A DNA stretch of 64,000 nucleotides from Alphaproteobacteria bacterium (lineage in GTDB: Bacteria > Pseudomonadota > Alphaproteobacteria > Bin95), in the NCBI GenBank assembly GCA_963665325.3, contig CAXXWS020000004.1:96001-160000 (forward strand), read 5' to 3'. The notes beneath the pieces are model-generated. The model made no database searches. It saw nothing but the letters and a program-made list of their open reading frames with translations, and was not told the origin of the DNA. Below, one piece after another: positions 2,685 through 47,938 of this stretch. Position 1 is the first letter of the stretch. The number at the start of each line of letters is the position of its first letter. The translations under genes and the position numbers were made by a program.

Positions 2685-3493
2685 CGGCTGCCACTGCCGC
2701 GGCGACGGGAACTGACGTCACCGCCGCCGCGGCAATCTCGGTGCGCGGGCTGTCGGTCCGTTTCGATGGAGACGCCGGCAGCATCACCGCGCTGGACAAG
2801 GTCGGCTTCGAGGTGCCGGAGGGCGGCTTCGTCACCATGCTGGGGCCGTCGGGATGCGGCAAGTCGACATTGCTGCGCGCCATTGCCGATCTGGTTCCGA
2901 TCGGGGACGGCGCAATCAGCGTCTTCGGCCGCACGCCGGAGCAGGCCCGCCGGGCGCGCGACTTCGCCTTTGTCTTCCAGGACGCGACGCTGCTGCCCTG
3001 GCGCAGCGCCATCGACAATGTCCGCCTGCCGCTGGAGGTCGGCCGGCAAAGCGGCGTCGTCGAGCAGCATGCCGAACCCGAAGCGCTGCTGGCGCTCGTC
3101 GGCCTGGACGGGCGCGAGAACGCCCTGCCGCACGAACTCTCGGGCGGCATGCGCCAGCGCGTGTCCATCGCCCGGGCACTGGTCCACCGGCCGCGCGTGC
3201 TGCTGATGGACGAGCCCTTCGGCGCGCTCGACGAGATCACCCGCGACAAGCTCAACGAAGAACTCCTGCGTATCTGGCGCGAGACCGGCACCACCATCAT
3301 GTTCGTCACCCACTCGGTGCCCGAGGCGGCCTTCCTCGGCCAGAAGTGCCTGGTGCTGTCGGCCCAGCCCGGCCGGGTCCGTGAACTCGTGAGCATCGAC
3401 TTCGCCGAGCCGAGGGCTCTGGCCATGCGCGACACGCTTGAGTTCGTGCAGGTCACTGCGCATCTGCGCAGCCTGCTGGAGGAGGCGCGATGA
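2681..3493 (+). CDS. NitT/TauT-family ABC transporter ATP-binding protein
   Basis: [42 protein letters not shown]. Confidence 0.95.
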   Translation: MTAATAAATGTDVTAAAAISVRGLSVRFDGDAGSITALDKVGFEVPEGGFVTMLGPSGCGKSTLLRAIADLVPIGDGAISVFGRTPEQARRARDFAFVFQDATLLPWRSAIDNVRLPLEVGRQSGVVEQHAEPEALLALVGLDGRENALPHELSGGMRQRVSIARALVHRPRVLLMDEPFGALDEITRDKLNEELLRIWRETGTTIMFVTHSVPEAAFLGQKCLVLSAQPGRVRELVSIDFAEPRALAMRDTLEFVQVTAHLRSLLEEAR

Positions 3494-4337
3494 CCACGGC
3501 GAGCGTCGGCGGCAAAGGTGCCGGGACGACGCCGGCCGACACCCGCGGGATCGCCCGGGAAACCCGCACCCGCCCCCGGCCGCCCGGCGGTTCCGTCATG
3601 CTCCGCCGATCGTTGCCGCCGCCGGGATGCTGGCGCTCTGGCAACTGATCGTCAGCGGATTCGGCGTGCCGAGCTACATCGCGCCAAGCCCGGTCCAGGT
3701 TCTCCGGGTGTTCTTCGAACAGGGCGAGATCCTCTGGATCAACTTCTGGCCGACGCTGCTCGAAGCGGCGGCCGGGTTTGCGCTCGGCAACTCGATCGCG
3801 GTGATGCTGGCGGTGTGGTTCGTCCACAGCCGGCTGGCGGAGCGCGCCTTCTACCCGATCGCGGTCTTCATCAACACCATCCCGATCATCGCCGTGGCGC
3901 CGATCCTGGTGCTGATACTGGGCAACGGTTATGCGCCGAAGATCGTCATCGCCGCGCTCATCTGCTTCTTCCCCACCCTGGTCAACATGGTGCGCGGCCT
4001 GAAGGCGGTCAGCCCGCAGATGCTGGAGCTGATGCGGGTGCTGTCGGCCAGCGACCGGGAAATCCTGTGGAAGATCAGGCTGCAAAGCTCCCTGCCGTTC
4101 CTGTTCGCGGCGTTGAAGATCGCATCGACCACCTGCGTCATCGGCGCCATCGTCGGCGAGTGGATCGGCTCCAACTACGGCCTGGGCTCCCTCATCATCG
4201 AGGCCACCTACAACTTCCGCGCCCCGCTGCTCTACGCCACCGTGATTCTGGGGGCAGGCCTGGCGGTGGCGTTCTTCGTGACCACGACCCTCATCGAACG
4301 GCGGATTCTGAAATGGAAGCCGGGCGCGGTCTTCTGA
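3490..4337 (+). pseudogene. NitT/TauT ABC permease, probably frameshifted near its 5' end
   Basis: The ATGA-coupled start at 3490 runs to a stop near 3648, while the permease body (PSYIAPSP, EWIGSNYGLG) is in another frame. A shorter product from ATG 3628 is an alternative. Confidence 0.6.
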
Positions 4338-4406
4338 ACGGAAAGACCGGGATCGTGCCGGCCGGCGCCCGGCACTCGACAGTGAACAGACGACGGAGAC
4401 GAGCAC

Positions 4407-5768
4407 ATGGCATCCCCGGAAATACTGACCCGGCCCCAGGCCGACGTGCCGGTCGTCGCCACCGCCGGCGTGGCGGTCGTGGGCGGCGGACCGGCCGGCA
4501 TCGCAGCCGCGGTATCGGCCGCCCGCAACGGCGCGCCGACGGTGCTGGTCGAGCGCTATCCCTATCTCGGCGGTCTTGCCACGGGCGGCATGGTGCTGGT
4601 GCTGGACGACATGCACAACGATCTGGAGATCTCGGTGCGCGGCCTGGCGATGGAGATCATCGAGCGCATGCACGCCAGGGGGCTGTGCGTATATCCGCCG
4701 GAGGCCGACCGCGATCCCGCAATCCGGGCGACCGAGGCGCTCTAGCGCAAGTGGTCCCGGTGGGGCGTGTTCGACTTCCATACCCGCACCAAACCCCATC
4801 CGGTCATCTTCGCCGCGGCCTTCGACCCGGACGGCTTCAAGCAGGCTTCGCTCGACATGGTGCGCGAGGCCGGCGTCAATCTGCGCCTGCACAGCTGGTT
4901 CCAGTCCACGATCGTCGAGGACGGGCGGGCCGCCGGGGTGATCGTCGAGACCAAGGAAGGCCCGCAGGCCATCCGCGCCGAGGTGGTCATCGACGCCACC
5001 GGGGACCTCGATGTCGCGGCGAGCGCCGGTGCCCCCTTCGCCGAGGGCGCGTTCATCGTAACCACCGTGTCGCGCATGGGCGGCGTCGATACGGACACGG
5101 CCGAGCGGTTCCAGTTCGAGGAGCCGGAACGGTTCGCGGAGCTCGACAAGCAGGCGAAGAGCCTGATCGGCGGCTGCTGGCAGTACTGGTGGCTGAAGAC
5201 GCCGCTCCCCGGCGTGGTGTGGTGCAATTGTCCGCACATGACCGGCTTCGACGGCATGAAGGTGGCGGACCTGACGGCCGCGGAGTTCGAGGGCCGGCGG
5301 CGCATGCAGGCCTTGCTGGAGTTTGCGCGCACGCACATTCCGGGCTTCGAGCGCGCCTATTTCGTGGATTTCGCGCCCCAGACCGGGGTGCGCCAGACGC
5401 GCCTGCTCGAAGGCGAGTATGTGGTCACCAGGCGCGACGTGATGGACCGCGTGCATTTTCACGACTCCGTCTGCCGCGGCCGGGACTACTACACCCCTTA
5501 CCGTGCCTTGCTCCCGGTGGGCGTGGAGCAGGTTCTCGTGGCCGGCCGCCACTACTCGGCAACGCCGCAGGCCCAGAAGGTGAGCCGGGAGATTCCGCCC
5601 TGCATGGCCATGGGTGAAGCCGTCGGCATCGCCGCCGCGCAATCACTGGACAGCGGCACGCTGGTTCGCAATGTGGACGTGCGCGCCATCCAGAGGCAGA
5701 TGCGCGCCCAGGGCGCGGACCCGGGCGACATACCGGCCGACAATGCCCGGTTGCCGGAGGCTGCCTGA
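4407..5768 (+). pseudogene. FAD-dependent oxidoreductase interrupted by an in-frame TAG at 4743-4745
   Basis: VVGGGPAGIAAA, VIDATGDLD, PYRALLP, CMAMGEAVG. ORFs 4407-4745 and 4767-5768 share one frame. Confidence 0.85.
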
Positions 5769-6542: not shown

Positions 6543-6652
6543 TGTTAACGGCGGCGGAATAATGCTCCACAGGAAGCGCCCGGTTGGTCGGGTCGCGGCG
6601 GCGCAAAATTGCGCCAGTGATGCCCCCTTGTCCGTTTGGTCGGGGGCGGGGG

Positions 6653-8155
6653 ATGTATGGGGTGGAGCTTTACGCAGCGGTACGACTTGCGGTTGTCGAG
6701 GAGGGTCTGAGCCATCATGAGGCCGGTCGGCGGTTCGGGATCGACCGTCGCACGGTGAAGAAGATGCTGAGCTATTCGGCGCCGCCGGGCTATCGGCGCC
6801 GGAAGCCGGTGCGTCGTCCGAAGCTGGACGGGTTCACCGGGATCGTCGATGCGATCCTGGAGGGGGACCGGGCGCCGGACGTGCCGGTCAAGCAGCGGCA
6901 CACGGCGCACCGGATTTTCGAACGGCTGCGTGACGAGCACGGGTTCACGGGCGGCTACACCATCGTGAAGGACTATGTGCGCTCGCGGCGGCAGTCGTCG
7001 CGCGAGGCCTTCGTGCCGCTGCATCATCCGCCGGGCCATGCGCAGGTCGACTTCGGCGAGGCGGTGGTCGAGGTCGGCGGGCGGCGCGAGAAGGTGGCTG
7101 TCTTCTGCCTGATCCTGCCGCATAGCGACCTGTGGTTCGTGAAGGCCTATCCGAAGGAGACGACGGAGGCGTTCCTGGACGGCCATGTCAGCGCCTTCGC
7201 CTTCCTCGGCGGGGTTCCGCTTTCGGTGCTTTACGACAACACGACCCTGGCAGTGGCGCGGATCCTGGGCGACGGCACGCGTCAGCGCACGCGGGCGTTC
7301 ACGCCTCTGCAGTCGCACTACCTGTTCCGCGACCGCTTCGGTCGTCCCGGCAAGGGCAACGACAAGGGCAAGGTGGAGGCGCTGGTGAAGACGGCGCGGC
7401 GCAAGTTCATGGTGCCGATCCCAAAGGTGCCCGATCTGGATGTTCTGAACGAGCGGCTTCTGGCGCGCTGCCTGGAGCGTCTCGACGCGCTGCAGCAGAG
7501 CGCGCAGGCGGCGGCGTTGCTCGCCGATCTCGACACCCTGCGCGATCTTCCGGGCGCGCCCTTCGAGGCGTGCGAGCATGTGCCGGGCCGCGTGTCCTCG
7601 ACGGCGCTGGTGCGCTACCGGTCGGTGGACTACTCGGCCCCGGCGGTGCACGCCCACAAGAAGGTGACGATCAAGGGCTATGTCGACCGGGTCGAGATCG
7701 CGCTCGGCGCCGGGATCGTCGCCCGCCACCGGCGTTCCTATGTCCGCGGCGACGTCGTTTACGACCCGCTGCACTATCTCTCGCTGCTGGAGAAGAAGCC
7801 GGGGGCGCTGGACCAGGCGGCGCCGTTGCGCGGCTGGAAGCTCGATCCAGCCTTCGACGCGTTGCGCCGCCTGCTCGAGGCGCGCTTCGGGCCGCGCGGC
7901 AAGCGGGACTACATCCAGACCCTGCGCCTGCTGGAGGACTTTCCGGAGCGCCAGGTGACGGCCGCGGTGCGGGACGCGGTGGCGCGCCGGCTGGTCGGCT
8001 TCGATGCCGTCAAGCACCTGCTGCTGGCGCGCATCGAGAAGCGTCCGGCCCATCTCGACCTGACGCGCTACCCGCACCTGCCGCAGCCCCTCGTCGCCGC
8101 CACCCGGGCCGGCGACTATGCCTCCCTGCTGGCCGGAGGGGGCAGTCGTGGCTGA
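6653..8155 (+). CDS. istA: IS21 transposase IstA
   Basis: N-terminal HTH, AQVDFGE, YDNT, GNDKGKVE, YSAP beta-barrel tail. Confidence 0.95.
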   Translation: MYGVELYAAVRLAVVEEGLSHHEAGRRFGIDRRTVKKMLSYSAPPGYRRRKPVRRPKLDGFTGIVDAILEGDRAPDVPVKQRHTAHRIFERLRDEHGFTGGYTIVKDYVRSRRQSSREAFVPLHHPPGHAQVDFGEAVVEVGGRREKVAVFCLILPHSDLWFVKAYPKETTEAFLDGHVSAFAFLGGVPLSVLYDNTTLAVARILGDGTRQRTRAFTPLQSHYLFRDRFGRPGKGNDKGKVEALVKTARRKFMVPIPKVPDLDVLNERLLARCLERLDALQQSAQAAALLADLDTLRDLPGAPFEACEHVPGRVSSTALVRYRSVDYSAPAVHAHKKVTIKGYVDRVEIALGAGIVARHRRSYVRGDVVYDPLHYLSLLEKKPGALDQAAPLRGWKLDPAFDALRRLLEARFGPRGKRDYIQTLRLLEDFPERQVTAAVRDAVARRLVGFDAVKHLLLARIEKRPAHLDLTRYPHLPQPLVAATRAGDYASLLAGGGSRG

Positions 8156-8912
8156 GGCGCCCCGCATCCTGCTCGAACACCACCTGAAGAAGCTCAAGCT
8201 GCCGACCGTCCTGCGGGAATACGAGAAGCTGGCCCGCCAGTGCGCGGCCGAGGGGCTGGATCATGTGCAGTTCCTCGCCCGGCTGGTGGAGATGGAGACG
8301 ATCGACCGCGAGCGCCGCCTGGTCGAGCGCCGCATCCGGCAGGCCAGGTTCCCGGTCGTCAAGCAGCTCGAGAGCTTCGACTTCAAGGCCATCCCCAGCC
8401 TCAACAAGATGCTGGTGCTCGACCTCGCGCGCGGCGATTACATCGAGCGGCGCGAGAACGCGATCCTGCTCGGCCCGAGCGGTGTGGGGAAGACGCACAT
8501 CGCTCTGGCCCTCGGCCTCGCCGCCTGCCAGAAGGGCCTCGCCGTGCGCTTCACCACCGCCTCCCAGCTGGTCCACGAGATGATCGAGGCGCGCGACGAG
8601 AAGAGGCTGCTCCGCCTCCAGGACCAGCTCGCCAGGGTCAGTCTGCTGATCGTCGACGAACTCGGATACGTGCCCCTCTCGCAGAGCGGAAGCGAGCTGC
8701 TGTTCGACATCTTCAGCCGCCGCTACGAAAACGGCGCCACAATCGTCACCTCGAACCTGCCCTTCCAGGAATGGACCTCGGTCTTCGCCAGCGAGCGGCT
8801 CACCGGCGCGCTGCTCGACCGCATCACCCACCATGTCCACATCCTGGAGATGAACGGCGAAAGCTACAGGCTCAAGCAAAGCCGGTCGCGACGACGGCCC
8901 CCCTCCGAATAA
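8148..8912 (+). CDS. istB: IS21 helper AAA+ ATPase IstB
   Basis: GPSGVGKTH, LLIVDELGY, TSNLPF.EW, ALLDRITHH, GESYR. Confidence 0.96.
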   Translation: MAEAPRILLEHHLKKLKLPTVLREYEKLARQCAAEGLDHVQFLARLVEMETIDRERRLVERRIRQARFPVVKQLESFDFKAIPSLNKMLVLDLARGDYIERRENAILLGPSGVGKTHIALALGLAACQKGLAVRFTTASQLVHEMIEARDEKRLLRLQDQLARVSLLIVDELGYVPLSQSGSELLFDIFSRRYENGATIVTSNLPFQEWTSVFASERLTGALLDRITHHVHILEMNGESYRLKQSRSRRRPPSE

Positions 8913-9088
8913 CCCGCTTGCTCCCATAGACCACAGGTCCCTCCCACGCGCGGGTCGACGCCAGCCACATGGAGGGCGCGCCGCCCCGCGCGCGGGGCCC
9001 TCCCATGGACTATGGGGACAAGCTACCGCCAAGCCCGTGGTACATCTTTACGCCGCCCCGCCGGTACATTTTTGCTCCGCCGTTGACA

Positions 9089-9397
9089 CATCGACGATCC
9101 CGGTGAACCCGTCCAGCTTCGGACGACGCACCGGCTTCCGGCGCCGATAGCCCGGCGGCGCCGAATAGCTCAGCATCTTCTTCACCGTGCGACGGTCGAT
9201 CCCGAACCGCCGACCGGCCTCATGATGGCTCAGACCCTCCTCGACAACCGCAAGTCGTACCGCTGCGTAAAGCTCCACCCCATACATCCCCCGCCCCCGA
9301 CCAAACGGACAAGGGGGCATCACTGGCGCAATTTTGCGCCGCCGCGACCCGACCAACCGGGCGCTTCCTGTGGAGCATTATTCCGCCGCCGTTAACA
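9089..9397 (-). mobile_element. Inverted 309-bp copy of the IS21 left end (IRL plus istA 5')
   Basis: Reverse complement of 6543-6851, abutting the IRR of the complete copy. Confidence 0.95.
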
Positions 9398-9717
9398 GGT
9401 AGGCCCTACCGCGGCCAGGCCGGTTACGCCCGCGTCCACCGACCCTACCCCTCAAGGGCAGGCTCAGCCGTCAGTGGGCGAGCATCGAACTTTTGAACCA
9501 GTCGGTGGAAGCTCATCTCGCTCCCTGGCGTTTCTGACGGCCCCCTTTGCGGTGCCTCCCTCGGCGCCTTGACGGCGCGATCCTGCACATGTCCGCGCCC
9601 CTTCACCCGAGGCGGTAGCGCGCACGTTCACGCGGTCAATATTGGCCGGCGAAAAGGAGTACCAACGCCAGACGGCTACGAATTGCCGGCCGCTTGAGGC
9701 AGGATCCGCCGAAGGAT

Positions 9718-15226: not shown

Positions 15227-17124
15227 GGAACGCCACTGGCGTGTCCGGATCGCTGCCGTCGTCGATGGACGGGAGAGCGGCCTGGCTTGCCGCGGCCGGC
15301 GGCCTGAACGCGGCCATCGATGCCGGGGGGCTTGGCGAACCGGTTGCCCTCCCTCTTGCCGAGGCGTTGGTGCTGGGCCTGATGCGTCAGGGGGTGACGA
15401 AGTATCTCGCGATCTTCGGACACGGCTCAACCGCGATCGGGGAGGTGTTGCGGGTTTACCAAGCCCACGGTCTGGTCCGATGCTGGCAGTTCCGCAACGA
15501 GGTCGCGATGGCGCACGCCGGAACTGCACTCCGCTGGGTGTACGGAGAGCCGTCCGCAGTGGTCACGTCCATCGGGCCGGGAGCGATGCAGGCCATGGCC
15601 GGATCGCTGGCGGCGGCTTCCAACGGCGTCGGCGTCTATCACCTCTACGGCGACGAGACCACTCACGGCGAAGGCTACAACATGCAGCAGGTGCCCAAGC
15701 CGGCACAGGGGCTTTTCGGGCAGATAACCGCGCTGATGGGCGAGTCCTGGACCCTGCATAGTCCCGGCGGGCTGCGGGCCGCGTTGCGCCGGGGCGCGAT
15801 GACCGTGTTCCACCCGTGGAAGGCCGGTCCGTTCTACCTGAACCTGCCGCTCAACACCCAGCCCGCAAAGACCTTGATCCGGCTCGATACCCTGCCGGTA
15901 GCTCCCGTGTTCTCCCCTGCCGCACCCGCCGGCGAGGATGCATACGCCGAGGGCGCAGCGCTCATCGCCGGCGCCCGGCGTGTCGCGGTCAAGGTCGGCG
16001 GAGGGGCGCGGTCCTTTGCCCGCGCGATCCGGGAGTTCGCGGAGTTGGCGGGCGCAGCGGTGGTGCTCAGCCCCGGCTCGACCGGGGTGATGCCCGACGA
16101 CCACCCGCAGAACCTGCACGTCGGTGGCTCCAAGGGAACCATCAGCGGCAATTTCGCGATGGAGGAGGCGGACCTGCTGGTGGTCATCGGCAGCCGGGCG
16201 GTGTGCCAGAGCGATTGCTCGGGGACGGGATGGCCGAAGGTCTGCCACGTCGTCAACATCAACGCCGATCCGGAGGACGTCCAGCACTACAACCGCACCT
16301 CTGCGCTGTGCGGTGATGCCGGAGCGGTACTGGAACGCCTGAACGACGTGCTGCGCCGCAATTATCCGCAGGCGCCCGCGAGCAAGCGGGAGTGGCTCGA
16401 CGCCTGCGCCGCAAAAAAAGCCGAGTGGCGGGCGTTCAGGGTCACGCAGCTCGATGCCGCCCCTCCCGTTGACACGGTCTGGCAGCGGGCGGTGTTGACC
16501 CAGCCCCAGGCGATCACGGTCACCGCAGCGTTCTGCAAGGCGCGGGGCGCCGTCAAGTTCTTCGACGCCGGCGACGTGCAGGCCAATGGCTTCCAGATCA
16601 TCGAGGACGACTCGCCATTCGAGACCTTTACCGAAGCCGGTGCGTCCTACATGGGGTTCTCGGTCTCGGCCCTGCTCGCCGGTGCGCTGGCCGAGAACGG
16701 GCGCTATGCCGTCGCCTTCACCGGCGACGGTTCGTTCACGATGAACCCTCAGGTCCTGATCGACGGCGTGGAGCACGGCGCTCGGGGCGCCATTGTCCTG
16801 TTCGACAACCGCCGCATGGGCGCGATCAGCCAGTTGCAGCAAGTGCAGTACGGAGCGGACTTCCGCACCTCGGACTCCGTGTCGGTGGACTACGTGCAAA
16901 TGGCGGCATCGGTCGCGGGAGTGAAGGCGCTGTCGGGAGGTTTCGATCCGTCCTCCCTGACCGCAGCGCTAGAAGAAGCGTTTGATTACGATGGCCTCAG
17001 CCTCATCCATGTCCCAGTCTATTTCGGGGACGACCAGCAGGGTGGCATGGGCGCCTACGGGCGTTGGAATGTCGGGAACTGGTGTGACGACGTACAGGAC
17101 CGCTACGTGCGTACATTGATTTGA
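15223..17124 (+). CDS. Thiamine-diphosphate-dependent enzyme, IolD-like
   Basis: ATGA coupling, IFGHG, RNE..MAH, TSIGPG, SYMGF, TGDGSF..N, DNRRMGAI TPP motif. Confidence 0.85.
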   Translation: MRNATGVSGSLPSSMDGRAAWLAAAGGLNAAIDAGGLGEPVALPLAEALVLGLMRQGVTKYLAIFGHGSTAIGEVLRVYQAHGLVRCWQFRNEVAMAHAGTALRWVYGEPSAVVTSIGPGAMQAMAGSLAAASNGVGVYHLYGDETTHGEGYNMQQVPKPAQGLFGQITALMGESWTLHSPGGLRAALRRGAMTVFHPWKAGPFYLNLPLNTQPAKTLIRLDTLPVAPVFSPAAPAGEDAYAEGAALIAGARRVAVKVGGGARSFARAIREFAELAGAAVVLSPGSTGVMPDDHPQNLHVGGSKGTISGNFAMEEADLLVVIGSRAVCQSDCSGTGWPKVCHVVNINADPEDVQHYNRTSALCGDAGAVLERLNDVLRRNYPQAPASKREWLDACAAKKAEWRAFRVTQLDAAPPVDTVWQRAVLTQPQAITVTAAFCKARGAVKFFDAGDVQANGFQIIEDDSPFETFTEAGASYMGFSVSALLAGALAENGRYAVAFTGDGSFTMNPQVLIDGVEHGARGAIVLFDNRRMGAISQLQQVQYGADFRTSDSVSVDYVQMAASVAGVKALSGGFDPSSLTAALEEAFDYDGLSLIHVPVYFGDDQQGGMGAYGRWNVGNWCDDVQDRYVRTLI

Positions 17125-17151
17125 CCTTGCCCGCAAAAGTGGAGCGAGCCC

Positions 17152-17342
17152 GGCTTCCGCCACCGGTAGCCCGGCGGCGCCGAATAGCTCAGCATCTTCT
17201 TCACCGTCCGGCGGTCGATCCCGAACCGCCGCATATAGCTCCACGCCATACATCTCCCGCCCCGCGCCGATACCGACAAGGAGCTACAGATGGCGCAATT
17301 TCGCACCGCCGCGACCGGACCGCCCGGTCGCTACTCGTGGAG
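17152..17342 (-). mobile_element. Degenerate IS21 left-end remnant (diverged isoform, internal deletion); continues at 18747-18766
   Basis: Similar to 9133-9375 (MYGVELYAA, IDRRTVKKMLSYSAPPGYR). The IRL is split by the IS110 element. Confidence 0.88.
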
Positions 17343-17359
17343 GATCTGTGGACGCCTCC

Positions 17360-17639
17360 ATTGGTGCAAGCCTTTACTTCGGACAGTTCGGGTCATGCGG
17401 TCAGGTGCAGTCATCTGTCCGGCCTCGTGGTGCGGCTGGATTGACGCCGCAGGCCTGTATGGAGATGCGCGGACCGGATCCAAGATCATTATTGCGGGCT
17501 TGAGTGGCCCTTTATTGCGGGCTTGAGTGGCCCTTGCTCCACGACTGGTTTTTCCGGTCCCGTCTCGATTGACCGTTTGCCCTTACTCGTCCTCCGACCT
17601 GCTCACACCCCCGACGGCTTCCTGCTGTTCGCCTCTTGC
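17360..17639 (-). ncRNA. Predicted bridge RNA / seekRNA of the IS1111-type element (boundaries approximate)
   Basis: Segments match both halves of the insertion target (17535-17544, 17487-17493) and both halves of the circle junction (17459-17464, 17412-17418). Each pair is separated by a hairpin, with closing stem GGACCGGA/TCCGGTCC. Confidence 0.8.
17489..17534. repeat. Perfect 23-bp tandem duplication TTATTGCGGGCTTGAGTGGCCCT x2
   Basis: 17489-17511 equals 17512-17534. Confidence 0.95.
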
Positions 17640-18662
17640 TCAGGCTGCAGCAGGAGCCCGGTAGTCCTCCTTCTTCGTTGTCAGCGCCCAGATGATGCGC
17701 GCAATCCGGTTGGCCAGCGCCACGGCGACCAGCTTGCGCGGCTTGCGCGCCAGCATCCGGGCCAGCCAGGGGTCCGTCGTCCGGCCACGCCGTACGGCCC
17801 AGCTGACGACAGCCATGGCGCCCGAGATCAGCAATCGTCTCAGATCGCGCTGGCCCATCTTCGATATCCTGCCGAGCCGCGGTTTGCCGCCGGTCGTGTG
17901 CTGGCGCGGCACCAGTCCAAGCCAGGCGGCAAAGTCGCGGCCGCGACGGAAGCTCTCCATCGGCGGCGCGAAGGCCTGGACCGCCATCGCGCCGATCGGC
18001 CCGATCCCCGGGATCGTCATCAGACGCGCCGCCTCTTCGTCCTGACGCGCGCTGGCGCGGATCTCCTTTTCCAACCCGCCAATCTTCTCATCGAGATCGG
18101 CGATCCGGTCGAGTAAAAGGCCGCCCAACCTGCGCACCGCGCCCGGCAGGCTCAATCCCGGATCATCGAGGGCTGATGCCAGCCGACCGACATGAGCCGG
18201 ACCCTGCGGCGCCACGACACCGAACTCCGACAAATGGCCGCGTAGCGCATTGATCGTCTGCGTGCGCTGGCGCACCAGGAGGTCGCGCGTATGAAACAAC
18301 ATTGCCCTGGCCTGCTGCTCTTCCGTCTTCACTGCCACAAAGCGCATGGTCGGGCGCTGCGCCGCCTCGCAGATCGCCTCCGCGTCCGCAGCGTCGTTCT
18401 TGTGCCGCTTCACATACGGCTTCACGTAAACCGGCGGGACCAGCCTCACGTCGTGGCCGAACCGCATCATCTCCCGGCCCCAATTGTGAGCGCTCGCGCA
18501 AGCCTCCATCGCCACCGTGCAGCGCGGCTGCGAGGCGACGAAGTCGAGCAGCTTTCCCCGGCTCAACTTCCGGCGAAACGCCACCGATCCATCCGACCGA
18601 GCTCCATGAACCTGAAAGCTGCGCTTCGCCAGATCGATCCCGATGATGCTAACCTCTTCCAT
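17640..18662 (-). CDS. IS110-family DEDD recombinase/transposase
   Basis: GIDLAK, AMEAC, KNDAADAEAI, TIPGIG, WLGLVPRQHTTGGK..LGRISKMG...LR, AVALANR. Strong RBS GAAGGAGGAGG. Confidence 0.95.
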   Translation of the reverse strand: MEEVSIIGIDLAKRSFQVHGARSDGSVAFRRKLSRGKLLDFVASQPRCTVAMEACASAHNWGREMMRFGHDVRLVPPVYVKPYVKRHKNDAADAEAICEAAQRPTMRFVAVKTEEQQARAMLFHTRDLLVRQRTQTINALRGHLSEFGVVAPQGPAHVGRLASALDDPGLSLPGAVRRLGGLLLDRIADLDEKIGGLEKEIRASARQDEEAARLMTIPGIGPIGAMAVQAFAPPMESFRRGRDFAAWLGLVPRQHTTGGKPRLGRISKMGQRDLRRLLISGAMAVVSWAVRRGRTTDPWLARMLARKPRKLVAVALANRIARIIWALTTKKEDYRAPAAA

Positions 18663-18746
18663 GGATGCCTCCTCCTTCAGGGGGTTCGAATGCACCACCA
18701 CCTTGGCACATCGCGATGCCGGCGGGAGGAGGCGTCCACTCCATCA

Positions 18747-18766
18747 TTATTCCGCCGCCGTTAACA
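18747..18766 (-). mobile_element. Outer tip of the interrupted IS21 IRL
   Basis: rc is TGTTAACGGCGGCGGAATAA, identical to 6543-6562. Confidence 0.9.
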
Positions 18767-18800
18767 CCATGATCCCGCGCTTCATTCATGCCACCTCACG

Positions 18801-19152
18801 CCGCCGGCAACACCGGTATGGTTCAGTTGCGTTGCGCCAAGGCTTCAGACAGCGGCAATCTCGACCTCGACGCTGTGGACGCAGGTGCTCTCGCCCATGT
18901 CCGACTTGATGCTGGGGTTGAGGACATTGACGTTGGCGCGCGTGCCTTCCTGACGCGGCCAGCGGCCCTTGGGGCTGAGCGCAACGCCTTGCGGGATGGA
19001 CCCGGCAACCGCCAGCGCAAGCTCCAGGCTGCCGGTCTCGTTGCTGAGCCGCACCTGCTGCCCTTCGGTCAAGCCGCGAGCCGCCGCGTCCTCCGGATGC
19101 AGCGCCACCGTCGCTTCGCCCATGAGTTCGCCGACGCGCCGATCGTTGGCAT
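18801..19152 (-). pseudogene. Duplicated 3' end of the molybdopterin oxidoreductase gene
   Basis: Colinear with 45873-46224, no indels, about 15 substitutions in 352 bp by eye. Confidence 0.92.
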
Positions 19153-19272
19153 GTCCGGCGTAGCTGCGGGTTGTGGTAGCTCGCCAGCGATGACAGTTGG
19201 GTTAGATGTATCTGGTTGTGCCGTCCGATTGTGTTGCCGGTCGTCCTGCCAGTTCCATGGCAGGAGTTCGTC
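19153..19272 (-). mobile_element. IS66 tnpC 3' remnant
   Basis: Minus frame reads DELLPWNW, the typical TnpC terminal motif. Confidence 0.55.
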
Positions 19273-19466
19273 GCCGAAGCCGTACGGCGGTGGGTCGCCG
19301 CCGCGGGAAGCCGGAGCGCCTTCATCGAGCCGGGTTCGCCTTGGGAGAATGGCTACATCGAGAATTTCAATGCGCGGCTGTGCGACGAGTTCCTGAACGG
19401 GGAGATCTTCTACACCCTCAAGAAAGCCCAGGTTCTCGTCGAAGCCTGGCGACACCATTACAATGC
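19264..19466 (+). mobile_element. IS3-family transposase (integrase core) remnant
   Basis: EFVAEAVRRW..FIEPGSPWENGYIENFNARLCDEFLNGEIFYTL..A...VEAWRHHYN. Confidence 0.85.
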
Positions 19467-19485
19467 CGCGGGCCGTACCGGCCGC

Positions 19486-20280
19486 TCATGCGAGCGTCAC
19501 CTGCACCGGTGGCAGCTCCGCGAAGCGGCCTTCGAAGGTCTGGCCGGGGGCGACCTCGGTGATGCCGGTGCAGGAGCCAGTGAAGACGATCTCACCCGCG
19601 CGGAGACGGCCGCCCGCGATCGACAACGCCTCGGCCAGCCACAGGAGCGCCACAAGCGGATGCCCTAGCACTTTCGCCCCGGTTCCGCTCGCCGCCATTG
19701 CCCCATCGCACGCGGCGACGACCGATAACGCGGAGAGGTTCCGCCGTCGCCAATCGGGAATCGGGCCGCCCCGGACGACGGCGACGTTGAGACCGTAATC
19801 CGCGACCGAGCTCATCTCGTTCAGCGGAATGTCTTCCGTAACACGTCGACCGACGATCTCGAGCGCCGTGAAACAATCGGCGATCGCCGACCCCAGCTGT
19901 TCGAGAGTCACGGACTCGCCATCGGCAGGAAAGTCCCGCGCCATCTCGAAGCCGAACTCGCATTCGACGCCGAGGAGCCCGGCGGGAACCGAAAAGGTCG
20001 CTCCGCTCGCGAGCACGTGCTCCCCCAGGACCGGTGCGTGTATCGGCCCCGTACACTTCAGCAGCCTTTGCACCTCTTCGCTTGTCGACCCGATCTTGTA
20101 ACCGCAGGTCTCGCCGTCGAGCGCCGCCACAGCGGCCGCCAAGAATGCCTCCGCGTCGCCGCGATCAGCAATGGTATGCAGTGGTAGCCGCTCGACAGTA
20201 CCGCGCCGGCGGCAATCGGCGAGTCGAGCCGCCGCTGCCGGATCCGCTGACCCCACCGCCTCAGACAAGTGTCGTCGCAT
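19486..20280 (-). CDS. 2-keto-4-pentenoate hydratase / FAH-superfamily protein
   Basis: GYKIGSTS, VECEF, ALEIV, VLGHPL.AL.WL, GEIVFTGS.TG. Confidence 0.85.
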   Translation of the reverse strand: MRRHLSEAVGSADPAAAARLADCRRRGTVERLPLHTIADRGDAEAFLAAAVAALDGETCGYKIGSTSEEVQRLLKCTGPIHAPVLGEHVLASGATFSVPAGLLGVECEFGFEMARDFPADGESVTLEQLGSAIADCFTALEIVGRRVTEDIPLNEMSSVADYGLNVAVVRGGPIPDWRRRNLSALSVVAACDGAMAASGTGAKVLGHPLVALLWLAEALSIAGGRLRAGEIVFTGSCTGITEVAPGQTFEGRFAELPPVQVTLA

Positions 20281-26677: not shown

Positions 26678-26767
26678 TCGACTGCGGCGGCCCGGCCGCA
26701 TGCTTGGCCGGCGCGTAGTAGCAGGTTATATGTTTCTGAAATGTTCCATATTTCGTGAGAAGCCGCC

Positions 26768-26935
26768 ATGCGCAAGGAAGACAGCCTTCCGGCGCCGCGC
26801 GACGAAGTGCTCTTCGATATCGAGATGGCGCTCAGCAAGGAAGAGAAGCTGTGGCCGAAGCGCTACAGGCCCGGCGACCACAACCACGGTAGCCTGCTCA
26901 ACCAGCAATGCCTGCTGCACAAATTTCAAGGGTAG
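26768..26935 (+). pseudogene. Truncated paralogue of the small ORF at 34723-34977
   Basis: Shares EVLFDIEMALSKEEKLWPKR.RPGDH and about 70 bp of upstream sequence, then diverges. Confidence 0.75.
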
Positions 26936-34500: not shown

Positions 34501-34687
34501 GAACAGCGCCATAAGTAGCTGATCGCGTTGGATCCCGAAGGGTCAGGACCCGGCGCTTAACAACAGCGGCAATCCGGTAACGCGGGCCGACGTGGCCCGG
34601 GCGGCCGACGAGACGATCGGGTAGCGGCGCATATCGGGCCTGCCGGCCCTGCCGCATGCTTGGCCGGCGCATGGCGGCAGGTTATAT

Positions 34688-34702
34688 GTTTCTATAATGT
34701 TC
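34688..34702 (+). promoter_or_regulatory. Putative alphaproteobacterial LexA box (GTTC-N7-GTTC-like)
   Basis: GTTT-CTATAAT-GTTC, overlapping a TATAAT. Conserved as GTTT-CTGAAAT-GTTC at 26732-26746. Confidence 0.45.
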
Positions 34703-34722
34703 CACACTCTGCGAGATTCCAC

Positions 34723-34977
34723 ATGCACAGCGAAGACAGCCACCCGGCGCCGAGAGAGGAGGTTCTCTTCGATATCGAGATGGCGCTCAGCAAGGAAGAG
34801 AAGCTGTGGCCGAAGCGGTTCAGGCCCGGCGATCACGATCGCCTCAAGCCCATGGCGCGGGCGATCCTCGAGCATCTCGAACACTGCGGTCTGCAGTTCT
34901 TCCGCAAACCGCCCGCGCCGAGACACAGCACGCCGGATCCCTGGGGCGGCGCCGGAACAGGGAAGGAAAGCGGCTGA
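34723..34977 (+). CDS. Small hypothetical protein (84 aa)
   Basis: Paralogous fragment at 26768; ARAILEHLEHCGLQFFRKPP. Confidence 0.7.
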   Translation: MHSEDSHPAPREEVLFDIEMALSKEEKLWPKRFRPGDHDRLKPMARAILEHLEHCGLQFFRKPPAPRHSTPDPWGGAGTGKESG

Positions 34978-45630: not shown

Positions 45631-45916
45631 GCCTTGCGATGTTGCGGGTGAGGCGCCGCAGCATGGCGAGGTTTTCGGGGCCGTGTTCCTGTCGGTTTCG
45701 CTGGCGGTCCTCGTTCATGGTCACGTCGAGGACCCAGTGCAGGCAGTTCTAGATGGCCCAATGGGCGCGCACGGCATTCTGGAGGCGTTCGGGCGAGAGC
45801 GGCGCGCTCATGATGTAGTAGCGTGTTTCGGTTGTTGCGCGCTTGGCGGTTTCGCGCCTCGCGTCGATCTTTCCGCCGGCAACACCGGTATGGGCCAAGT
45901 GCGTTGCGCCCAGGCT

Positions 45917-47938
45917 TCAGACAGCGGCAATCTCGACCTCGATGCTGTGGACGCAGGTGCTCTCGCCCATATCCGACTTGATGCCGGGGTTGAGGACATT
46001 GACGTTGGCGCGCGCGCCTTCCTGACGCGGCCAGCGGCCTTTGGGGCTGAGCGCGACGCCTTGCGGGATGGACCCGGCAACCGCCAGCGCAAGCTCCAGG
46101 CTGCCGGTCTCGTTGCTGAGCCGCACCTGCTGCCCTTCGGTCAGGCCGCGGGCCGCCGCGTCCTCCGGATGCAGCGTCACCGTCGCTTCGCCCATGAGCT
46201 CGCCGACGCGCCGATCGTTGGCATAGGAGCCGTTCATCAGCCAGGGCGAGGCCGGCGTCAGCAGGCGCAGTCGCCCGTTCCGGGGTTTCGGGTCGGCGTC
46301 GGCGAGCGGCAGGCGGGGATGGCCGTCGGCCTCGGCGCGGGCCGAGGCGATCTCGATCTTGCCGCTCGGGGTCGGGAAGGCGAGGTCGGAGAACTGGATG
46401 ATCGGTTGGGTGGTGGGAAACACCGTCCCGGACTTCTTGAACTCTTCGAAGGAGCCCTCGACACCCACCTGGCCCATGATCCGCTCAATGATCGTTGCGT
46501 CGTCCTCGTAGAGCTCGGGTTCCGCGAAGCCCATGGCGCGTGAGAGGCGGCGGAAAATCTCCTGGTTGGGCAGGGAGTCGCCCAGCGGCTCCTGAAGCTT
46601 GGCCTGGGCGGAGAAGGAGAGGTTGAAGTAGCTTGAGACCAGATCGTCGAACTCCATGAACGACGCCGCCGGCAGCACATAGTCGGCATAGTCTGCGGTG
46701 TCGGTCTGGAAAATGTCGACGACCACGGTGAAGAGGTCTTCCCGCATCAGCGCGCGGCGCAGCCGCGCCTGCTCCGGGCTTGAGGCAGCCGGATTGATGT
46801 TCCAGCAAAGGAAGGCCTGGATGTCCGCCGGATCTTCGAGCCTCGCCGCGAGTTCCATCTGGCTGAAGCTCGGCGGGCTCCGGTCTATTGCCGCGCCCGA
46901 CAGATAGTCGCCGTCAACGCCCCTCCGCCCGCTGCCATTGAGGTAAAGCATCCCCGCGCCGGGCTTGCCGAAATTGCCTGTGACTGCCGGCAGCAGCGCA
47001 CAGGCGCGCATCACGTTGCCGCCCATCGCCTGGCGTTGCAGTCCCTGGCCGAGCCAGAGCAATGCGGGCCCCGCACCGTAGATCCGCGCCGCTTCCTCGA
47101 TCTGCGCCGCCGGCACGCCGGTGCGGGCCTCGCCCCAGGCCGGCGTACAGGGGGCGATGGCGGGCTCCAGCTCGTCCCAGCCGAGCGCGTGGGCAGCGAG
47201 GAAGGCGCGATCGATCAGCCCGTCGCGCACCAGCACGTGGACCATGGCGAAGGCCAGGGACGCATCGCTGCCGGGAAAGGGCTGCAGATGCATGTCGGCC
47301 TGCTCGGCGGTCGGGTGGCGCACCGGGTCGACCACGATCACCGTGCCCGGCGCCTCCTTCAGCCAGTGCTTGTGCTGGTGCGGCGCGGAGGCGGAGGGGT
47401 TCGCGCCCCAGACGACGATGCAGTGCGAGTCTTTGGCGGTGCGCGGGTCGAAACCGATCGCGGACGTGCCGATCGCGTAGTCGAGTGCGACGTGGCCGGC
47501 CATGTTGCACACCGTGTCGGGCTCGACCTCGCGGGCGCCCAGGCGGCCCAGGAAGCGCATTGGGAAGTTGTTGGCGATCAGCGAGCAGGTGCCGGTGTAG
47601 TGCGCGTGCACGATCCTGTCCGCGCCGACGCCCTCGGCAATCCGGGTGAAGCGCGCGGCGATGTCCCCGATGGCCTCGTCCCACGAGACCGGCTCGAAGC
47701 GCCCTTCGCCCTTGGCGCCGGTGCGCTTGAGCGGCGTCTGCAGCCGTATCTCGGGATCGCGGAAGACGCCGTTGTAGGCAAGCGCACACTTGCCGCAGAG
47801 CGCACCTCGGCTCACCGGGTGGTCCGGGTCGCCGAGCACGCGGGTGATCGCGCCGTCGCGCTTGATCGCGACGATGCCGCAGGCGTCGTAGCAGTCGCGC
47901 GGGCAGGTGGTCTTGAGGACTTCCTTCTCGCCTGTCAT
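45917..47938 (-). CDS. Molybdopterin-dependent oxidoreductase (DMSO reductase superfamily)
   Basis: TCPRDCYDAC Fe-S motif, LCGKC, R..PLKR.G.KGEG.F..VSWDEA, TA.YADYVLPA, TPSGKIE, LHPEDAAARG. Confidence 0.93.
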   Translation of the reverse strand: MTGEKEVLKTTCPRDCYDACGIVAIKRDGAITRVLGDPDHPVSRGALCGKCALAYNGVFRDPEIRLQTPLKRTGAKGEGRFEPVSWDEAIGDIAARFTRIAEGVGADRIVHAHYTGTCSLIANNFPMRFLGRLGAREVEPDTVCNMAGHVALDYAIGTSAIGFDPRTAKDSHCIVVWGANPSASAPHQHKHWLKEAPGTVIVVDPVRHPTAEQADMHLQPFPGSDASLAFAMVHVLVRDGLIDRAFLAAHALGWDELEPAIAPCTPAWGEARTGVPAAQIEEAARIYGAGPALLWLGQGLQRQAMGGNVMRACALLPAVTGNFGKPGAGMLYLNGSGRRGVDGDYLSGAAIDRSPPSFSQMELAARLEDPADIQAFLCWNINPAASSPEQARLRRALMREDLFTVVVDIFQTDTADYADYVLPAASFMEFDDLVSSYFNLSFSAQAKLQEPLGDSLPNQEIFRRLSRAMGFAEPELYEDDATIIERIMGQVGVEGSFEEFKKSGTVFPTTQPIIQFSDLAFPTPSGKIEIASARAEADGHPRLPLADADPKPRNGRLRLLTPASPWLMNGSYANDRRVGELMGEATVTLHPEDAAARGLTEGQQVRLSNETGSLELALAVAGSIPQGVALSPKGRWPRQEGARANVNVLNPGIKSDMGESTCVHSIEVEIAAV

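Follow-up and report, generated by a model that had tools for sequence, protein, structure and literature searches.

A putative RNA-guided IS1111-type element inside an IS21 terminal repeat and the insertion habit of its lineage

Introduction

Insertion into the ends of other mobile elements has been published more than once for elements of the IS110 family of insertion sequences (IS). Partridge and Hall reportedly found in 2003 that IS4321 and IS5075 insert in the terminal inverted repeats of the Tn21 family, and Muller, Lauf and Herrmann are said to have reported in 2001 that IS1383 targets the inverted repeats of IS1384. The bridge RNA system of IS621 was reportedly also the subject of work by Hiraizumi et al. 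in 2024. In that year, RNA guidance was published for both IS110 and IS1111 elements (PMC11187229; PMC11208160). IS1111 elements place their guide RNA downstream of the transposase gene (PMC11187229; PMC11208160), their transposases carry the motif GL-P----S/TG in the C-terminal domain (PMC11187229), and the subterminal inverted repeats of the group measure 7-17 bp (PMC11208160). In this work, an element of this kind is described from a 64-kb stretch of an Alphaproteobacteria genome (assembly GCA_963665325.3, contig CAXXWS020000004.1, positions 96,001 to 160,000), referred to as the window. It lies inside the terminal repeat of an IS21-family element, and all of its coordinates are read on the minus strand; other contigs of the genome are named C1, C3 and C4.

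The element is very probably a member of the IS1111 group in which a bridge RNA (seekRNA) from the 295-nt right end guides the DEDD/serine recombinase, and which belongs to a lineage specialised on IS21 repeats. Five lines of evidence lead to this reading, namely the anatomy of the element, its family membership, the covariation of guides with flanks, the covariation of the RNA stems and the IS21 context of the lineage.

Anatomy of the Element and Its Insertion Site

On the grounds of its sequence, the stretch 17345-18744 falls in the IS1111 group of the IS110 family (Table 1). The N-terminal part of the transposase matches PF01548 (DEDD_Tnp_IS110, RuvC-like; E 2.4e-15) and the C-terminal part PF02371 (Transposase_20; E 4.3e-23), while the NCBIfam model NF033542, named 'IS110 family RNA-guided transposase', is matched at 327 bits against a cut-off of 140 (E 1e-97). 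The protein is homologous to the ISCro4 and IS621 transposases, whose structures have been solved (for IS621, E 1e-9 over the C-terminal half), and its translation contains GLVPRQHTTG, an instance of the IS1111 motif. The family assignment of a preliminary description, made by a model from the letters of the window, is thus upheld by Pfam, NF033542 and homology to solved structures. A plasmid collection gave four partial matches at 73-77% identity, none of which covered 80% of the query, and no close named relative.

Table 1. Features of the element, its insertion site and related copies; positions without a contig name refer to the window
Feature	Position	Strand	Remarks
IS1111-type insertion sequence proper	17345-18744	minus	1400 bp plus one 2-bp core; ends set by the subterminal repeats and against 73 related copies
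Transposase gene	17640-18662	minus	340 aa plus stop, intact; Pfam, NCBIfam, solved relatives, motif
Left core dinucleotide TG	18745-18746	minus	core-then-ATGGrr layout also in relatives
Right core copy, TC instead of TG	17343-17344	minus	same reading in X1 and X2 contigs
Left subterminal inverted repeat TGGACGCCTCC	18728-18738	minus	11 bp; preceded by 6-nt extension ATGGAG
Right subterminal inverted repeat GGAGGCGTCCA	17349-17359	minus	11 bp; followed by 4-nt extension CAGA (17348-17345)
Non-coding right end, putative bridge RNA/seekRNA region	17345-17639	minus	295 nt; minimum free energy (MFE) z-score -3.25; scaffold conserved in 38 aligned relatives
Target-loop closing stem, 5' arm	17553-17560	minus	pairs with 17471-17478; 8 perfect pairs
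Putative target guide 1, TCGTGGAGCA	17535-17544	minus	complementary to core plus right target half (top strand); 10/10 to rebuilt target
Perfect 23-nt tandem duplication in target loop	17489-17535	minus	Tandem Repeats Finder: period 23, 2.0 copies, 100%; hairpin and most of guide 2
Putative target guide 2, AATAATGAT	17485-17493	minus	includes AATAATG (17493-17487); equals left target half, core and the element's first two bases; 9/9
Target-loop closing stem, 3' arm	17471-17478	minus	partner of 17553-17560
Putative donor guide for left end, CTCCAT	17459-17464	minus	complementary to ATGGAG
Donor-loop hairpin (GGCC/GGCC, GCGGC/GCCGC)	17421-17455	minus	between CTCCAT and ACAGATG
Putative donor guide for right end and core, ACAGATG then A	17411-17418	minus	tracks right-end extension and core among relatives
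-35-like TTGCAC	17364-17369	minus	read by eye; CTTGCA kept in relatives
Outer 20 bp of split IS21-type terminal repeat	18747-18766	minus	tip TG at 18766-18765; identical to left end of full copies
Inner part of split IS21 end with decayed istA 5' remnant	17141-17342	minus	ATG at 17253; internal deletion; truncated near 17141
Full IS21-family element	6543-9088	plus	target at 6558-6572 free, in the CACAG form; extent set from four other full copies
Second IS1111-type element, three copies	C4:1062044-1063423; C3:1297239-1298618; C1:1479244-1480623

At the left junction, the flank AATAA is followed by the core TG (18746-18745) and by the element end ATGGAG (18744-18739). At the right junction, the element end ACAGA (17349-17345) is followed by TC (17344-17343) and by the flank CTCCACGA (17342-17335). 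The left non-coding end measures 82 nt as opposed to 295 nt on the right. All 73 related copies with both ends assigned follow one plan, in which left flank, core (CG or TG), ATGGrr and left subterminal repeat precede the body, while right subterminal repeat, four bases, core and right flank come after it. The TG core that had been proposed is supported at the left junction, with TC on the right.

The interrupted sequence is the left end of an IS21-family element. The left end of the full copy in the window opens with TG and, after 20 bp, continues with the left half of the target, then the TG core and then the other half in the CACAG form. The range initially delimited, 17335-18766, comprises the element together with both halves of the split IS21 repeat, up to the tip at 18766. 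The genome contains a single full copy of the element.

The non-coding right end is predicted to carry guides of two kinds. In the target loop, guide 1 would be complementary to the core and the right half of the target, a hairpin would follow, and guide 2 would equal the left half, the core and two bases of the element. The donor loop would hold a corresponding pair of guides, directed at the element ends as they are joined in the excised circle. All four guide segments, the closing stem and both junctions were recovered, in a minus-strand reading, where the preliminary description had seen them, as was the one mismatch at the present right junction (TC for TG). The 10-mer TCGTGGAGCA has one copy in the window, with 0.16 expected, and AATAATGAT occurs twice, with 0.05 expected, once as the guide itself and once at the left junction (18751-18743). 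The guides follow the order known from published IS1111 seekRNAs, with the match to the top strand 5' of the match to the bottom strand and an overlap of the two in the target. A promoter scan of the linear form found no promoter. On the circle, a -10-like hexamer would extend across the junction at a distance of 17 nt from the TTGCAC of Table 1, and a promoter may form there, as far as can be inferred from the letters.

Target Guides Covary With Insertion Sites

A protein search with the transposase returned 80 loci from genomes and 80 from metagenomes. The 73 genome copies with both ends placed consist of 69 loci and four copies from the present genome, six loci without a repeat pair and five mis-paired loci having been excluded; a further four copies were dropped as their guides could not be extracted, leading to 61 unique sites. 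In the metagenome set, both ends were placed at 57 of the 80 loci, and removal of four mis-paired loci and of those with flanks shorter than 8 nt led to 45 sites. Guides were extracted by alignment column and scored out of 11, with each element's own guide set against the same-core guides of other elements. For guide 1 of the metagenome set, the scored range was widened equally for own and foreign guides.

Own guides fit their sites better in both sets. At the 61 genome sites, guide 1 scored 7.74 on its own flank as opposed to 5.17 for foreign guides, and guide 2 scored 8.93 as opposed to 5.79 (1912 foreign pairs). The 45 metagenome sites gave 8.00 versus 5.67 for guide 1 and 8.78 versus 5.90 for guide 2 (1222 foreign pairs). 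The copy in the window scores 10 with each guide. The position of guide 1 covaries with the right flanks and that of guide 2 with the left flanks, and guide 2 always extends two bases beyond the core, into the element's own end. These results agree with the guide reading first put forward. It is conceivable that the target is chosen by protein-DNA contacts and that the matches of the RNA are coincidental, but this is extremely improbable, since guides and flanks covary in two independent sets and experiments on IS1111 relatives have found the RNA to be essential and re-programmable (PMC11187229).

The genome itself provides an internal control. A second IS1111-type element, 73% identical to that of the window, is present in three identical copies with a CG core, seated in palindromes that resemble repetitive extragenic palindromic (REP) sequences, and both its flanks and its target guides differ from those of the window copy. 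At its left end stands ATAGGG in place of the ATGGGG of its closest relatives.

Among the donor guides, the one for the right end follows six classes of end plus core, namely CAGATG, CACACG, CATACG, TAGACG, TACACG and TACATG. The guide for the left end, CTCCAT, is near-invariant across the family, and TTCCAT variants accompany ATGGAA and ATGGGA ends.

Two arrangements at the right ends of relatives were also observed. At locus L079, positions 3169-5002, a related element is followed by a module of 131 nt, made up of donor loop and right end, in at least 13 tandem units at 100% identity, some of them 161 nt long; the array may be an amplification made by the recombinase or an artefact of long-read assembly. 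It resembles the tandem ssr9 copies of ISPpu9 (PMC12288879). The right flanks of L066, L097 and L147 carry extra copies, about 10-15 nt long, of the right-end terminus directly after the junction, which look like remnants of tandem or repeated one-site insertion.

Conserved Structure of the Guide RNA Region

Covariation was tested directly on a five-helix structure of 27 pairs in 38 aligned right ends. In total, 92.6% of the cells were paired, as opposed to 23-44% in slid controls, and changes on both sides were found at nine of the 27 pairs, a number reached by one of 500 shuffles. The stem that closes the target loop (helix 2) is paired in 99.7% of cells with compensatory changes at four of its eight pairs, one of which is split between GC (20) and AU (18). 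The donor hairpin (helices 4 and 5) is paired in 98.0% and 99.5% of cells, with one compensatory pair, and the inner hairpin of the target loop is supported along with it. The claim that the non-coding right end contains a target loop and a donor loop thus stands on the aligned right ends and on the covariation of their helices.

Certain details leave room for other folds. RNAalifold offers an alternative in which GGGC (columns 18-21) pairs with GCCC (columns 148-151) in competition with the GGCC/GGCC of the donor hairpin. Both stems are almost invariant, and covariation cannot choose between them for that reason. A by-eye search for an outer stem closing the donor loop gave no convincing candidate. 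A long-range pairing of GGUCA with UGACC (17574-17570 with 17403-17399), with two of six pairs changed on both sides, is possible.

A Lineage That Inserts in IS21 Repeats

Every insertion known from the nearest lineage, 12 of 12, lies in an IS21-type terminal repeat; these are nine sister loci, the metagenome contig L090, the window copy and L005. The nine sister loci, at 83-85% amino acid identity in four metagenome-assembled genomes (MAGs), are the nearest in genomes, and all nine are in IS21-family ends. Six of them occupy the outer or inner repeat of a left end, upstream of istA, and three sit in right ends, adjoining istB and istA on the other strand. L005 (C3:188166-188283) is a truncated second copy in the present genome, 94% identical, which follows base 20 plus TG of another IS21-type tip. 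L090 is 93% identical in amino acids and 91% in nucleotides to the window element, and its left end is missing. At its right junction it adjoins the inner repeat of an IS21 right end, the IS21 being of the type found in the window, with an IstB at 94% identity nearby, and its target guides differ from those of the window copy as the right-end repeats require.

The position of the insertions is equally regular. The window copy, L005, L011 and L016 lie 20 bp plus the core from the tip, and L010, L012-L015, L017 and L090 occupy the equivalent position in inner repeats. The right end of the element faces the interior of IS21 at every insertion of the lineage. Thus, the targets span left and right ends, outer and inner repeats and three IS21 types, while the position within the repeat unit is constant. 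At the level of the lineage, this supports the 'parasite of IS21' of the preliminary description.

Beyond the lineage, the picture is different. IstA or IstB is found nearby in only 13 of the 160 loci, which indicates that the IS21 habit belongs to this lineage and not to the sub-family as a whole. The flanks of L129 and L152 start in the manner of a TGT tip, and were not counted as IS ends since the neighbouring open reading frame (ORF) encodes a DUF900 hydrolase and no transposase is present. An alternative possibility is that the element recognises a short motif which happens to occur in the IS21 repeat, with no specialisation on IS21. The low number of loci near IstA or IstB would be in keeping with this, as would the other clades of the family that are found at unrelated sites such as REP-like palindromes. 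It is nonetheless very unlikely in view of the 12 of 12 insertions in IS21-type repeats, with guides and targets that differ and a position in the repeat unit that does not.

If the element is indeed RNA-guided and specialised on IS21, the RNA would be made, bound by the recombinase and used to direct it. Recombination at the TG core would have placed the element 20 bp inside the IS21 terminal repeat with its right end toward the IS21 interior, and the lineage would follow the repeat sequences of the IS21 family by changing its guides. The occupied IS21 end might be impaired as a result. A further proposal can be made tentatively, as it falls somewhat short of probable: the lineage would be a dedicated hyperparasite of IS21, whose two guides are rewritten to follow the repeats bound by IstA, at left and right ends, in outer and inner copies and across several IS21 types, and whose splitting of these repeats measurably lowers IS21 transposition, amounting to a natural RNA-programmed brake. 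One MAG has four separately located IS21 copies, each with this passenger in the same inner repeat. These could be four site-specific insertions or one insertion that was copied by IS21, and the case is also compatible with hitch-hiking; that the element disables the end it enters, as the preliminary description has it, is accordingly a possibility.

The IS21 Host and Its Surroundings

The genome contains full IS21 elements. As had been noted, an intact copy with the CACAG form of the target is present in the window. Its IstA matches NF033546 at 253 bits against a cut-off of 160 (E 4e-75), its IstB matches PF01695 (E 1.2e-76), and four more full copies lie on contig C1. In all, the site is unoccupied in seven left ends of the genome whose 20-bp tip is complete, and in one near-full variant. 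The inner part of the occupied IS21 is 94% identical to a full copy over 82 nt and 91% over 93 nt. The ORF of its istA remnant gave no match in a Pfam search, and its internal deletion together with the cut-off near 17141 identifies the occupied IS21 copy as a relic.

Several features of these ends and of their surroundings were observed in addition. Directly after the right end of the full IS21 copy (9088) comes an inverted copy of the IS21 left end (9089-9398), 310 bp long and 100% identical, which takes in the first 200 nt of istA; the region thus looks like an IS21 with two left ends, and a further unoccupied target lies at 9368-9382. At C1:1415028 (minus strand), a diverged left end of the IS21 type has TT at the position of the core and a right half of the CACG kind, which shows that the IS21 ends of this genome vary at the bases that the guides would read. 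A direct repeat of 300 nt (18801-19100 and 45873-46172, 96% identical) begins 35 nt outside the IS21 tip, and the ORFs over its copy at 18801-19100 gave no match in a Pfam search. Farther away, adjacent repeat blocks of 73 and 115 nt recur 8 kb apart at 84-89% identity (26688-26881 and 34644-34836). They contain an AT-rich stretch within otherwise GC-rich DNA and may represent a shared regulatory region.

Evidence Against the Guided Reading and the State of the Window Copy

A number of observations weigh against the reading of the locus as an RNA-guided element specialised on IS21. The first concerns unoccupied sites. At the unoccupied IS21 left ends, guide 1 would match 8 of 11 positions and the left half is perfect, yet the genome has the one full copy of the element. 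The right core TC departs from the TG that the guides and the left junction predict, and the two junctions of the window copy consequently differ, where most related loci have CG/CG or TG/TG. The evidence from the lineage comes from few sources, namely four MAGs, one metagenome contig and this genome, with five of the nine sister loci in a single MAG.

Other points concern the RNA. An Rfam 15 scan of 16500-19500, at E up to 1, matched no RNA family apart from one chance match to a microRNA, which lies within coding sequence, and IS1111-type RNAs may have no model in Rfam. The RNA runs X17-X20 contained 0.04-0.05 of the sequence words, a share that speaks neither for nor against. The 23-nt duplication in the target loop was found neither in 45 other distinct aligned right-end sequences nor in L090, and the MFE fold of the isolated target loop pairs bases of the guides with each other, although an MFE fold is weak evidence for an RNA that would be bound by protein. 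Of the two donor guides proposed at the outset, the one for the right end is supported by its tracking of the six classes. CTCCAT is consistent with its role, and since the left end hardly varies, this guide hardly varies either and adds little independent evidence; the second element of this genome fits it only with one mismatch and wobble pairs. The last point is an element-free allele that is not a precise empty site. In runs X1 and X2, this allele (minus strand) retains the first three bases of the element between the target halves, so that its repeat exceeds all other IS21 ends of the genome by 3 nt.

Some of these observations might be explained if the window copy were a fossil, that is, if the guide reading were historically right and the element no longer moved, owing to its right core, the duplication and the decay of the host IS21. 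The single full copy in the presence of seven full and one near-full unoccupied left ends, the duplication (unique among 46 aligned non-coding RNA sequences), the right core TC and a host IS21 that is truncated and internally deleted all favor this possibility, as does the truncation of both the nearest relative L090 and the fragment L005. On the other side, the transposase reading frame is intact and full-length against its relatives, and mismatched right cores are also present in L026/L027, L065/L067 and L096. The duplication, moreover, can fold as one longer hairpin. In the MFE fold of the isolated target loop, the closing stem is intact and the two repeat units are merged in this way; guides 1 and 2 then lie at the two sides of the loop, and the duplication need not destroy the layout of the guides. 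The duplication is also present in contigs of X1 (17313-17764) and X2 (17313-17600) that show no difference from the window, which argues against a slip of the assembly alone, with the reservation that X1 and X2 may be the source of the assembly.

The element-free allele bears on the same question. Beside the occupied form, runs X1 and X2 contain a contig that joins 17342 to 18742, with 30 letters on the shorter side, and flank contigs end exactly at these two positions; contig joints at this stringency can stem from other organisms. The coexistence of occupied and element-free forms suggests a recent gain or loss and is a further point against a fossil. The rest of the assembly lacks this allele. 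It has the look of an imprecise loss, and could not be derived from precise insertion or excision at the TG core or from a simple model; the routes considered were a direct repeat of four bases, a pseudo-core at a shifted position and staggered exchange on a target longer by 3 nt. Run X4 contains an uninterrupted repeat of the CACGA kind (17341/18745) with one base changed next to the core. Taken together, a fossil at this locus is possible, if on the doubtful side.

Comparison With Known Systems

The IS1111 elements with a demonstrated seekRNA (ISEc11, ISPa11, ISKpn4 and ISPst6; Siddiquee et al., 2024, PMC11187229) share with the window element a DEDD transposase of 330-350 aa, the GL-P----S/TG motif, the subterminal repeats, the non-coding region downstream of the gene, the overlapping order of the guides and, as far as the differing cores of the window copy (TG and TC) allow, the lack of a target duplication beyond the core. 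They differ in their targets, which are REP or attC sites, whereas that of the window element, known from its sequence alone, is an IS21 terminal repeat. The 23-nt duplication in the target loop likewise sets the window element apart. IS621 (Durrant et al., 2024, PMC11208160) has a comparable RNA of two loops with target and donor guides around a 2-nt core, along with a homologous recombinase. It belongs to the IS110 group, however, with an RNA that lies in the left end, very short subterminal repeats and a reversed order of guides (PMC11208160).

Full-text literature on IS110 and IS1111 elements in connection with IS21, ISfinder and supplements being outside its scope, gave no report of IS21 ends as a target. 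In particular, PMC11187229 does not mention IS21, and targets in IS21 ends may be included in the supplementary target logos of Siddiquee et al. or in the bridge RNA tables of Durrant et al.

The lineage provides an example of natural guide re-programming, in which transposases that are 83-93% identical are accompanied by different pairs of guides, each of which matches a different repeat of the IS21 family. The roughly 100 pairs of guide and target constitute a table of natural specificity rules for the sub-family, including the two bases after the core that match the end of the element. The duplication in the loop, the odd right core and the allele that keeps three bases could furthermore inform what such a system tolerates and how excision can go wrong.

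The closest parallels in habit are elements that colonise other mobile elements. Like the window element, IS4321 and IS5075 are of the IS1111 family and reportedly enter the terminal repeat of a different mobile element at a fixed place and in a fixed orientation; they reside in transposons of the Tn21 family, whereas the host in the window is an IS21-family insertion sequence. IS1383 is likewise an IS110-family element, reportedly with the inverted repeat of another insertion sequence as its specific target. Its host, IS1384, is listed in the IS5 family (PMC5141477), while the window element resides in the IS21 family, whose ends have multiple repeats of which both outer and inner ones are used. 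With the present locus, IS21-family elements join the short list of mobile elements that are colonised by the IS110 family via their terminal repeats. Ultimately, both the guided mechanism and the targeting of repeats of other mobile elements were already known, and it is the use of IS21 ends as a class of host that is probably new.

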